Source of the DNA: a virus
Taxonomy: Duplodnaviria; Heunggongvirae; Uroviricota; Caudoviricetes
Reading direction: 5' to 3' (one strand)
Length of the DNA: 35,878 nucleotides
Virus record (IMG/VR): IMGVR_UViG_2684622775_000005
The notes under the pieces are model-generated. The model searched no databases. It was given only the letters and a program-made list of their open reading frames with translations, and had not been told where the DNA came from. A program made the translations under genes and the position numbers. Shown here one piece after another: positions 18,531 to 19,793 of this stretch. Each line of letters opens with the position of its first letter. Within the stretch, counting starts at the first letter, position 1.

Positions 18531-18606
18531 CTTTATTGATCTGAGAATATAAGAATGAAATTATTTGATTTAGTATGATTTATTTTGAATCTTTACGTTA
18601 ATAAAT

Positions 18607-18630
18607 AAAAGGCCAGTTATTGGCCTTTTA
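18607..18630. terminator. bidirectional intrinsic terminator between S and the convergent cargo gene
   Basis: AAAAGGCCA-gttat-TGGCCTTTT: stem-loop with A-tract on one side and T-tract on the other. Confidence 0.6.
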
Positions 18631-18633
18631 TCA

Positions 18634-19707
18634 TTACTTGCCATTTTTCAATGCGTTGATTAACGATGCTATTTGTTCAATACCATCAAATGTAGATGGT
18701 ATCTTATCATCGGATAGCATGATGTTTGAAAATACTACGTCTTCAAATTTTGAAAGCGCTTCCGGATTATTTTTCCTTATCTCTGAGGAATAGTCGCTAT
18801 AACTCTGAATGAACTGACAAAGGCTCTTTCTGAGTTCTATTTGCATAATCTGAGTTCGTAACGATATATGATTTATCAGTACAACTCTAAAGTAATACAT
18901 GAAAATCAATGTAACTGATGCAAAAGGTAGTGCTGACATAAAATATGTGGCAGCATTTGTCGTTTCGAGAGTTGGTAATTTATGCATTCCATAGTATATC
19001 AGCGGGGAGGGAATGATTATAGCCAAGATGATAAGAATTATTCTTGATAGCATGATTTCACTTTCTTTCTTTTTGCCAAGTGAATTAAAGCCATCAAACA
19101 ATCCAACAAAATTAAATGCGACCTCATACCCTTTTAATGACTCTTTAATTGACTCTATTTTGGCATGTTGCTCCTTTAAGAAGGAGTCGCACTTTTCGAA
19201 AAATTGACGCCCTTCGTTTAAACTATCAATGTATTTTTTATATGTGTCAACATTGCTGGAGCTTAAAACTTCTTTAACCATTGCTAATGGCAGTTCTCTA
19301 AGAGAAAAGTCTATCTGTGCTCTGCTCCGCTCATCGAATTCATTATAGTTATACAGAGCAAAATCCTTGATGGTTCTTAGTGGTGAAAAGTGAGACTCTA
19401 TTTCCGGAGAGAGAATGCTTGGTTCAATGATAAATCTAAAAAAGCAAGTGAATATAAGGTTGATGCTGTTGTTATCTTCTCCCTTTTCTCTTAAGAAACT
19501 TTTAAAGGTGTCGCCAATCATAGCAATGTTGTACTGGGATTTTTTGTCCCAATCTTCAGGGTTTTCGGAAATGAAGTTTATTGCTTGAGCAATTATTTTG
19601 TTTCTGTTTGATTCAAAGTTTGTGCCGGGAGTCAGCGTGTTCAAAAAGACCAGATAATCTTTGAACAATTCTTTCATTGTTTCTGACGAGAAAAAGTAAG
19701 TACTCAT
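18634..19707 (-). CDS. cargo gene at the orf30 position: membrane-anchored protein of unknown function (two predicted TM helices)
   Basis: AT-rich ORF between S and V on the opposite strand. Hydrophobic segments IMLSRIILIILAIIIPSPLIYYG and YFMSALPFASVTLIFMYYFRVVLI. The ORF track extends to a GTG at 19803 (389 aa); ATG at 19707 (358 aa) preferred because the longer form would cover the region upstream of V where its late promoter is expected. Confidence 0.7.
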   Translation of the reverse strand: MSTYFFSSETMKELFKDYLVFLNTLTPGTNFESNRNKIIAQAINFISENPEDWDKKSQYNIAMIGDTFKSFLREKGEDNNSINLIFTCFFRFIIEPSILSPEIESHFSPLRTIKDFALYNYNEFDERSRAQIDFSLRELPLAMVKEVLSSSNVDTYKKYIDSLNEGRQFFEKCDSFLKEQHAKIESIKESLKGYEVAFNFVGLFDGFNSLGKKKESEIMLSRIILIILAIIIPSPLIYYGMHKLPTLETTNAATYFMSALPFASVTLIFMYYFRVVLINHISLRTQIMQIELRKSLCQFIQSYSDYSSEIRKNNPEALSKFEDVVFSNIMLSDDKIPSTFDGIEQIASLINALKNGK

Positions 19708-19793
19708 AATGGATTTTGTTGTCCCTTGTTGTTCTGTGCACCAGAAATCGTGGTGTGATTTACTTCGAGATTGTACAGAATCATTATTATCGA

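Follow-up and report, generated by a model that had tools for sequence, protein, structure and literature searches.

An AT-rich moron in the S-V slot of a P2-type prophage encodes a member of a large, unannotated membrane protein family with a possible role in phage defense

Between the genes S and V of a 35,878-nt stretch of P2-type prophage DNA (IMGVR_UViG_2684622775_000005; this whole stretch is hereafter the window) lies an AT-rich minus-strand gene, which we refer to as the cargo. Its identification as a single-gene moron in the orf30 (S-V) slot of P2 is well supported, and its context makes it plausible that the product is an anti-phage membrane effector. The reading that we prefer, with a probability of roughly 0.45, is that of a stand-alone, lysogen-expressed anti-phage sensor-effector that acts in an abortive-infection-like manner.

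A single-gene moron in a variable slot of P2-like prophages

18634..19707, minus strand: cargo coding sequence, 357 amino acids (aa) plus stop, from ATG 19707; member of phrog_9373
18605..18631, both strands: predicted bidirectional intrinsic-terminator hairpin, with an 11-bp stem (AUAAAAGGCCA/UGGCCUUUUAU), a 5-nt loop and U-runs on both strands

The backbone of the window has ~97% nucleotide identity to phage P2. The DNA of the cargo matches none of 50,697 phage records, and 92 related phage records align to its flanks only, so that the gene constitutes extra DNA absent from close relatives (0 of 92). It also deviates in composition, with a GC content of 0.33-0.36 across 18.6-19.8 kb compared to 0.55-0.60 on either side; the open reading frame (ORF) itself has a GC of 0.35 and a third-codon-position GC (GC3) of 0.37, compared to 0.54 and 0.56 for S and 0.58 and 0.63 for V. 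Nine relatives deviate likewise, and in every host the GC of the relatives' cargo is 0.30-0.37, compared to 0.57-0.65 for V. Lastly, the gene has a terminator of its own by prediction (free energy, dG, of -16.2 kcal/mol on the cargo strand, followed by a U-run). These observations agree with an initial annotation of the window, made from the sequence alone, which had described an accessory (moron) gene in the orf30 position that is far more AT-rich than its neighbors.

The terminator hairpin was not picked up by a simple scanner. Compared to shuffled sequences, it is stable on the plus strand (dG -14.3 kcal/mol, z -3.7) as well as on the cargo strand (z -4.4); it begins 74 nt past the S stop and finishes 2 nt short of the cargo stop codon, and the P2 record has a putative O-operon terminator annotated at the equivalent position. 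We thus recovered, at 18605-18631, the 11-bp stem and two-way U-runs of the bidirectional terminator that had been placed at 18607-18630, and we predict from its structure that the hairpin ends both the O-operon transcript on the plus strand and the cargo transcript on the minus strand.

A P2-type S-V region is present in ~1,622 of 5,426 complete Escherichia coli genomes, and 60 of these ~1,622 carry the cargo, which is chromosomal and annotated as hypothetical in every case. In a spread sample of the ~1,622 genomes the slot was found in at least six states: empty, which is the commonest, or occupied by a P2-type orf30, the cargo, a 414-aa P-loop NTPase, a 247-aa hypothetical protein, or a 246-aa hypothetical protein on the plus strand. 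Gene content between S and V therefore varies across P2-like prophages, and the cargo is neither a backbone gene conserved in all of them at backbone GC (60 of ~1,622, GC 0.35) nor a homolog of any structural or lysis protein. The orf30 locus has been listed among three regions of P2 in which genes acquired horizontally are found (PMC3091744), and defense hotspots have been reported in the P2 tail region (PMC13586616); the slot was thus already known as variable, and the cargo in it is newly described here.

The six-frame listing places a minus-strand ORF of 389 aa, starting with GTG, at 18634..19803, flanked by S (18078-18530, plus strand) and V (start 19794, plus strand). A range of 358-389 aa had been given for this ORF by the initial annotation; its standing as a real gene between S and V holds, and the 389-aa form, which would overlap V, is unlikely. 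The start is almost certainly ATG 19707, giving 357 aa, because this is the RefSeq start of a 99.8%-identical copy in E. coli LR-45, because the N-termini of the family align at this methionine together with an invariant F6, and because the 32 upstream codons would overlap V, where most relatives have a cargo-V gap of 86-90 bp.

Protein architecture and conservation

19252..19707, minus strand: N-terminal domain, residues 1-152; cytoplasmic, all-helical, fastest-evolving part
19054..19251, minus strand: coiled-coil stalk, residues 153-218; long helix ending in the motif AFNFVGLxxGFxxLxxxK before the first transmembrane (TM) segment
18985..19053, minus strand: TM1, residues 219-241; Kyte-Doolittle values up to 2.4 in a 19-residue window
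18946..18984, minus strand: inter-TM loop, residues 242-254; ~13 residues, nearly uncharged, predicted periplasmic
18865..18945, minus strand: TM2, residues 255-281; ends in a conserved YYFRV motif
18637..18864, minus strand: C-terminal module, residues 282-357; highly conserved and predicted cytoplasmic, with QIELRKSLCQFIQSY ... KFE..FSNIM ... PSTFDG.EQ

Two strongly hydrophobic helices had been noted in the product and are evident at residues ~219-241 and ~255-281 of the 357. The sequence KKK precedes TM1 and an R follows TM2; with the uncharged loop between them, the positive-inside rule therefore gives an N-in/C-in orientation. This topology implies an inner-membrane protein whose termini are both cytoplasmic, as are more than 85% of its residues by prediction, and no signal peptide was evident when the sequence was inspected by eye. 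AlphaFold2 models the protein as all-helical (mean predicted local distance difference test score, pLDDT, of 78), with a compact N-domain and with two very long helices (153-231 and 252-313) forming a hairpin that has the TM segments at its tip; the N-domain modeled alone reached a pLDDT of 92.9 and a predicted TM-score (pTM) of 0.89.

Conservation is distributed unevenly along the protein. The N-terminal ~190 residues are variable, and dense conservation runs from AFNFVGL (198-203) through both TM segments to QIELRKSLCQFIQSY, KFE..FSNIM and PSTFDG. Family alignments contain 15-35 invariant columns, most of them within residues 282-357, and the invariant residues of the motif before TM1 are N199, F200, L203, G206, F207 and K214. 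E95, R274, R293 and C297 are invariant as well. The same polarity is seen in substitution rates: using the Nei-Gojobori method on four alleles of rising distance, we obtained ratios of nonsynonymous to synonymous substitution (dN/dS) of 0.18-0.39 for the N-domain compared to 0.04-0.12 for residues 196-357. It is also seen when the window copy is compared with P2-like phages of other genera, where identity is 24-37% for the N-half of the cargo and 45-64% for its C-half, compared to 41-51% for gpS, 53-83% for gpV and 65-86% for gpJ. Based on this pattern we propose that the C-module (282-357) may serve as an effector or oligomerization module and the N-domain as a sensor or specificity domain.

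The cargo is a functional gene under purifying selection, given an overall dN/dS of 0.06-0.24 with intact frames. Its ribosome-binding site is weak, its predicted promoter is weak, and it is annotated as hypothetical only, all of which could fit an ORF that is decaying or without function, or an artefact of annotating AT-rich DNA. Against this stand the dN/dS values over four divergence levels, 926 sequence clusters of constant length with their invariant columns, and the confident AlphaFold2 model of the N-domain; the selection and conservation data effectively refute the artefact explanation, which we regard as extremely improbable.

A hidden Markov model (HMM) of the N-domain had no significant match in 10 of 81 homologs, in which the C-module was still detected at 1e-32 to 1e-59. 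These ten come mainly from Pasteurellaceae and Moraxella, with one from a Klebsiella phage-plasmid, and three of them are truncated gene calls. Replacement of the N-domain by another domain in the Pasteurellaceae, Moraxella and Klebsiella members was considered and rejected, as vestigial family motifs persist. Because these motifs remain, the sequences suggest that the failures of the HMM reflect extreme divergence and probably not domain replacement.

A large family in diverse genomic contexts

The cargo protein matches phrog_9373 over its full length (E 8e-134, profile positions 9-387 of 388), a PHROG that has no annotated function. A word-index search recovered 348 relatives, and an exhaustive HMMER search recovered 926 clusters at 50% identity, 670 of them below 1e-30. 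Lengths are near-constant, at ~355 aa with nearly all members between 350 and 370 aa. With one genome sampled per species, we examined 80 loci distributed among Gamma- and Betaproteobacteria, Campylobacterota, Desulfobacterota, Nitrospirota and Bacteroidota.

Within the Enterobacterales, all ten of the further loci that we examined with their context (Yersinia, Citrobacter, Kosakonia, Erwinia, Pectobacterium, E. albertii and one metagenomic contig) place the gene, again antiparallel, between S and V of a P2-like phage or prophage. The divergent alleles that occupy this slot in P2-like phages of six other genera have 35-50% identity. In E. albertii, whose allele is 76% identical, an IS200-type transposase (Y1_Tnp) lies between the cargo and S (JASWDT010000050.1, L101 4157-4591). 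Diverged alleles with 26-32% identity to the window protein are present on 224 Klebsiella plasmids of ~110 kb, which are non-mobilizable and of phage-plasmid type; at the one such locus that was inspected (L004 3572-4738), the gene lies antiparallel to replication genes, between a primase gene and a hypothetical gene. Typical conjugative plasmids are essentially without the family. Some members reside in integrase/primase islands, and at one of these a putAbiC gene lies 1 kb away.

No conserved partner gene was found. The 145 nearest neighbors, drawn from the 80 species, are spread over 123 Pfam families, and at most nine loci share any one neighbor, on which grounds a conserved partner was rejected. 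Signal-generating partners such as a nucleotide cyclase or reverse transcriptase were likewise not found as conserved neighbors in the 80 loci. A cluster labeled 'C39/ABC exporter' in 9 of the 80 loci was also rejected as a partner, since it probably lumps a common paralogous family, and the exporter is adjacent only in three related Beggiatoaceae.

Several contexts outside prophages were also recorded. In five Pasteurellaceae (L069, L074, L078, L082 and L085) a family member with a very diverged N-terminal half lies in the histidine operon directly after hisB (IGPD domain); in two of the species the next gene downstream is hisH (glutamine amidotransferase), and in the remaining ones hisH is no more than 3 kb away. 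For this family, such a housekeeping setting is unusual. In three giant sulfur bacteria of the Beggiatoaceae (L020, L037 and L060) an ABC exporter gene precedes the family member by 34-46 bp, and a response regulator gene lies downstream of it. In Buttiauxella (L094) the gene occurs outside a prophage, and its surroundings include a C39-peptidase ABC exporter, an HlyD-like protein and a TcdA/B-like glycosyltransferase.

These contexts bear on the possibility that the cargo has an accessory role other than defense, either in lysogenic conversion and membrane physiology (envelope stress, transport or a signaling adaptor) or as a helper of the phage life cycle (lysis timing or membrane events at induction). 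The his-operon copies, the exporter and response-regulator neighbors in the three Beggiatoaceae and the absence of defense homology in PADLOC are consistent with such a role, as are the location of the P2 lysis genes just upstream and the functional diversity of morons (PMC3594210). However, the cargo is antiparallel to the late and lysis transcripts with a terminator between them; it is dispensable for the phage, because the slot is empty in most P2-like phages; it has no conserved partner or pathway context; and its AT-richness in every host (GC 0.30-0.37), together with the company of PDC-S59 in the slot, suits conflict genes better. We therefore consider a non-defense role unlikely, although it is a credible competitor.

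Borders of the cassette and the divergent promoter region

18516..18604: left cassette junction and AT-rich spacer after the S stop (18528-18530), from alignment with P2 and Wphi; the drop in GC starts here
19708..19793: divergent intergenic region of 86 bp, from cargo ATG to V ATG; expected to contain the late promoter of V as well as the promoter or 5' untranslated region of the cargo
19737-19757: hairpin with a 7-bp stem (GCACCAG...GTGGTGT), at the position of the P2 Ogr-binding dyad
19794..19838, plus strand: first ~14 codons of V, within the swapped AT-rich cassette; MNAQYNEILRFIRN... vs. MNTLANIQELARALRN... in P2

Alignment shows that homology to P2 and Wphi stops on the left at ...CTCACCT, 15 nt before the S stop, so that the last three sense codons of S (18516-18530) are already unlike P2, and that homology to P2 returns on the right at about codon 14 of the annotated V, near 19836 (ATGATTCGCACTGG). 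The swapped cassette is thus larger than the interval of 18531-19793 to which the gene was initially assigned. The N-terminus of V in the window (MNAQYNEILRFIRN) resembles those of distant P2-like phages that carry the family (MKTQLNEILRLLRN and MNVQLNEILRLIRN), unlike that of P2 (MNTLANIQELARALRN). The cassette thus carries both a pV region and a V N-terminus of its own, and the resemblance to distant P2-like phages suggests that it was probably acquired by homologous exchange from a diverged P2-like donor.

The baseplate spike (V) is chimeric, as its N-terminus has the form that is usual in P2-like phages further removed from P2. The cassette is flanked by the two copies of an imperfect direct repeat of 19 nt (16/19), at 18554-18572 just after S and at 19809-19827 in the 5' end of V; since 8 of 500 shuffles score equally well, it is marginally above chance, and it may be either a recombination footprint or a chance occurrence in AT-rich DNA. 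No Rfam family was detected by an Rfam scan of the cassette region.

Inspection by eye of the region between the cargo and V identified -10-like elements on the minus strand, GATAAT (19791-19786) and TACAAT (19775-19770), and on the plus strand, CATTAT (19782-19787). The motif beside the V ATG, which is GCATAATG in common to the relatives and CGATAATAATG in the window, reads as a -10 hexamer in both directions, as CATTAT towards V and as GATAAT or CATAAT towards the cargo. In the P2 record the Ogr site lies 42-69 bp upstream of the V ATG (~55 bp), with transcription starting at the ATG, and relatives have TGT-N10-13-ACA dyads centered 53-61 bp upstream of V. A perfect Ogr-type dyad (TGT-N12-ACA) is missing from the pV region of the window but present in the relatives from Yersinia and Pectobacterium, at 55-61 bp upstream of V. 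The geometry of this region and the conserved motif hint, in line with the initial annotation, that the cargo and pV may share promoter space and be subject to interlocked regulation.

Other genes of the slot and of the prophage

L090 1029-2273, minus strand: P-loop NTPase WP_095454397, 414 aa, in the S-V slot; PADLOC PDC-S59 (6e-31)
L091 1145-1888, minus strand: 247-aa hypothetical protein in the S-V slot of E. coli
L092 949-1689, plus strand: 246-aa hypothetical protein in the S-V slot of E. coli; faint HNH/endonuclease I signals (E ~0.008)
6671-8878 of the window, minus strand: 735-aa ATPase in the A-Q (old/tin) hotspot, a second AT-rich island (GC 0.29-0.35); PADLOC PDC-S06 (E 4e-254)
25213-25941 of the window, plus strand: 242-aa ORF in the Z/fun-position island; no matches
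26370-27140 of the window, minus strand: 256-aa ORF in the Z/fun-position island; DUF5677 domain (E 2e-8)

The PDC-S59 NTPase and the other S-V cargos resemble the gene studied here in being single genes, mostly antiparallel, within near-identical P2 backbones. The NTPase is nonetheless an unrelated protein, and PDC-S59 is a candidate defense family only. In the prophage of the window, the 735-aa ATPase has a PrrC-like C-terminal region (E 4e-16). A third AT-rich island (25200-27600, GC 0.36-0.44) occupies the Z/fun position, downstream of the tail-fiber genes. Prophages of the P2 type have proven to be a source of new anti-phage systems, and attention has been directed mostly at the A-Q (old/tin) and Z/fun hotspots.

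Relation to known proteins

Searches with the cargo protein returned nothing significant in Pfam or NCBIfam, and neither these nor PADLOC revealed an enzymatic motif, in agreement with the initial annotation, which had recognized none. When 95 diverse family members were compared to Pfam, only scattered chance matches to coiled coils were found. Sequence-profile searches of the PDB gave nothing below an E-value of 0.1, and Foldseek gave no match in the PDB at E<=1e-3. Weak matches to toxins of the ClyA/XaxAB type were evident, both by sequence (XaxA, E 0.3) and with Foldseek (XaxB and SmhB, E 0.5-0.6, TM-score <=0.27), but they lie at the level of generic coiled coils.

Among proteins of the same slot, the non-essential Orf30 of P2 (NP_046770) is the natural comparison. 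It is likewise antiparallel, lies between the O-operon terminator and the pV region and has several hydrophobic segments; however, it has no sequence relation to the cargo, has 261 rather than 357 aa, and differs in its TM layout. Homology between the two was rejected after profile comparison (hhalign probability 0.2%, E 0.39), and Orf30 itself has no match in PADLOC or Pfam.

HK97 gp15 provides a precedent for a gene of this anatomy, as a tail-operon moron that deviates in GC and has a promoter and a terminator to itself; it is expressed from the prophage, and its inner-membrane product protects against other phages (PMC3594210). The target of P22 SieA, a protein of 162-164 aa with three predicted TM segments, is the ejection-protein conduit, and alleles of the SieA family have <30% identity (PMC10883804); like the cargo, SieA is a prophage-encoded inner-membrane protein that acts alone. 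Searches through Pfam and PHROG, which did not include a direct pairwise comparison with the gp15 or SieA sequences, detected no homology to either protein.

The cargo could accordingly be thought of as a superinfection exclusion protein, which would block the entry of incoming phage genomes at the inner membrane, without killing the cell, in the manner of gp15 and SieA. It is an inner-membrane protein from a moron in the tail region of a temperate phage, the same setting as that of HK97 gp15 (PMC3594210), and it would be functionally like P22 SieA (PMC10883804). Among mobile elements, moreover, the family occurs almost only in temperate phages and phage-plasmids, and the unrelated Orf30 of the same slot also has multiple TM segments. 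Nevertheless, merely ~13 uncharged residues of the cargo protein are predicted to be periplasmic. The membrane-proximal parts are those most conserved, across phyla that have wholly different phages, and the variable part is cytoplasmic, which is opposite to the pattern expected of a surface that contacts specific phages; SieA differs from the cargo in this regard, as the conservation pattern of the cargo points to a cytoplasmic variable domain. Many members also occur outside prophages, and at 357 aa the protein is far above the size of known superinfection exclusion proteins. The contrast with gp15 is similar, given that this YebO-like archetypal moron is small and blocks genome entry while the cargo protein is large, mostly cytoplasmic and without a Pfam match. 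We regard superinfection exclusion as improbable, and we favor an abortive-infection-like sensor-effector over an injection block because of the polarity of conservation and the tiny periplasmic exposure.

A different class of membrane proteins offers what we think is the closest analogy in working mode. The 2TM effectors of abortive infection (SLATT-type, as in CBASS, retron and Pycsar systems) have an N-in/C-in TM hairpin with conserved flanking helices and are proposed to kill by disrupting the membrane; their activation normally depends on a partner enzyme or on a nucleotide signal. In contrast to these, the cargo is stand-alone and has no Pfam or PADLOC match at all. SLATT_1-6 and DUF4231 gave no match at E<=1, either for the cargo or among the top recurrent families of the 95 members, in searches that did not extend to profile-profile comparison.

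An anti-phage sensor-effector as the preferred reading

The sequence of events that we envision begins with the gain of the cargo by a P2 backbone through homologous exchange with a more distant P2-like phage. Transcription of the gene would run opposite to the late operons, from a promoter region of its own to the bidirectional terminator, and the gene would be expressed from the prophage in the lysogen. The variable cytoplasmic N-domain (residues 1-152) would sense a cue derived from the phage or from the infection, whereupon the conserved membrane and C-terminal module would oligomerize and compromise the inner membrane. The outcome would be abortive-infection-like, such that the lysogen population and the resident prophage are protected.

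Several lines of evidence lead us to this preference. The gene has the anatomy of a moron, it keeps company with PDC-S59 in the slot and with PDC-S06 in the prophage, it is restricted to temperate phages and islands, and its distribution is that of a gene without a partner. Above all, the membrane module is conserved across phyla and the variable part faces the cytoplasm.

A number of observations weigh against this interpretation. Approximately 10 of the 145 nearest neighbors match PADLOC models at <=1e-10 (mad3, dGTPase, HEC-06 and PDC-S02/S20/S35/S48), which is suggestive of a defense context, but the enrichment is modest and its background uncalibrated. No family in PADLOC-DB v2.0.0 matches the cargo protein at E<=1, and no relative of it was found in Pfam, NCBIfam, the PDB or by fold. 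Stable residence in a his operon would be odd for a toxic effector. The Shine-Dalgarno sequence of the cargo is poor and its promoter is weak, as a consensus promoter scanner identified no minus-strand promoter upstream of its ATG. The dN/dS is below 1 throughout and gives no direct signature of an arms race. Lastly, searches by accession found no publication on the family and located no experimental report; three family accessions were also searched in the DefensePredictor supplements, and none was present.

Implications

An AT-rich moron in a known variable slot of P2 is of a well-known kind; the family to which it belongs is large and is unannotated in the databases searched. The orf30 slot is also a site of cassette exchange for alternative single genes, and one of its cargos belongs to a large cross-phylum family without Pfam, NCBIfam, PADLOC or PDB annotation. 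If the cargo is not defensive, it is an ordinary moron.

A broader proposal, which is possible but which we hold to be doubtful, is that these proteins represent a new and widespread family of single-protein membrane immune sensor-effectors, with 926 clusters from Gammaproteobacteria to Bacteroidota, in which a diversifying N-domain gates a 2-TM killing module. The S-V slot would then be an under-recognized hotspot of single-gene defense, in which each cassette supplies a V promoter and a V 5' end of its own, and expression of the cargo and of the late tail genes would be mutually exclusive by way of overlapping divergent -10 elements.

If the cargo is defensive, it adds a membrane effector that needs no partner and in which a variable domain is set apart from a conserved module, a division that is suited to domain swaps. 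It would also provide an annotation for hundreds of genes that are now called hypothetical in Enterobacterales prophages and Klebsiella phage-plasmids.

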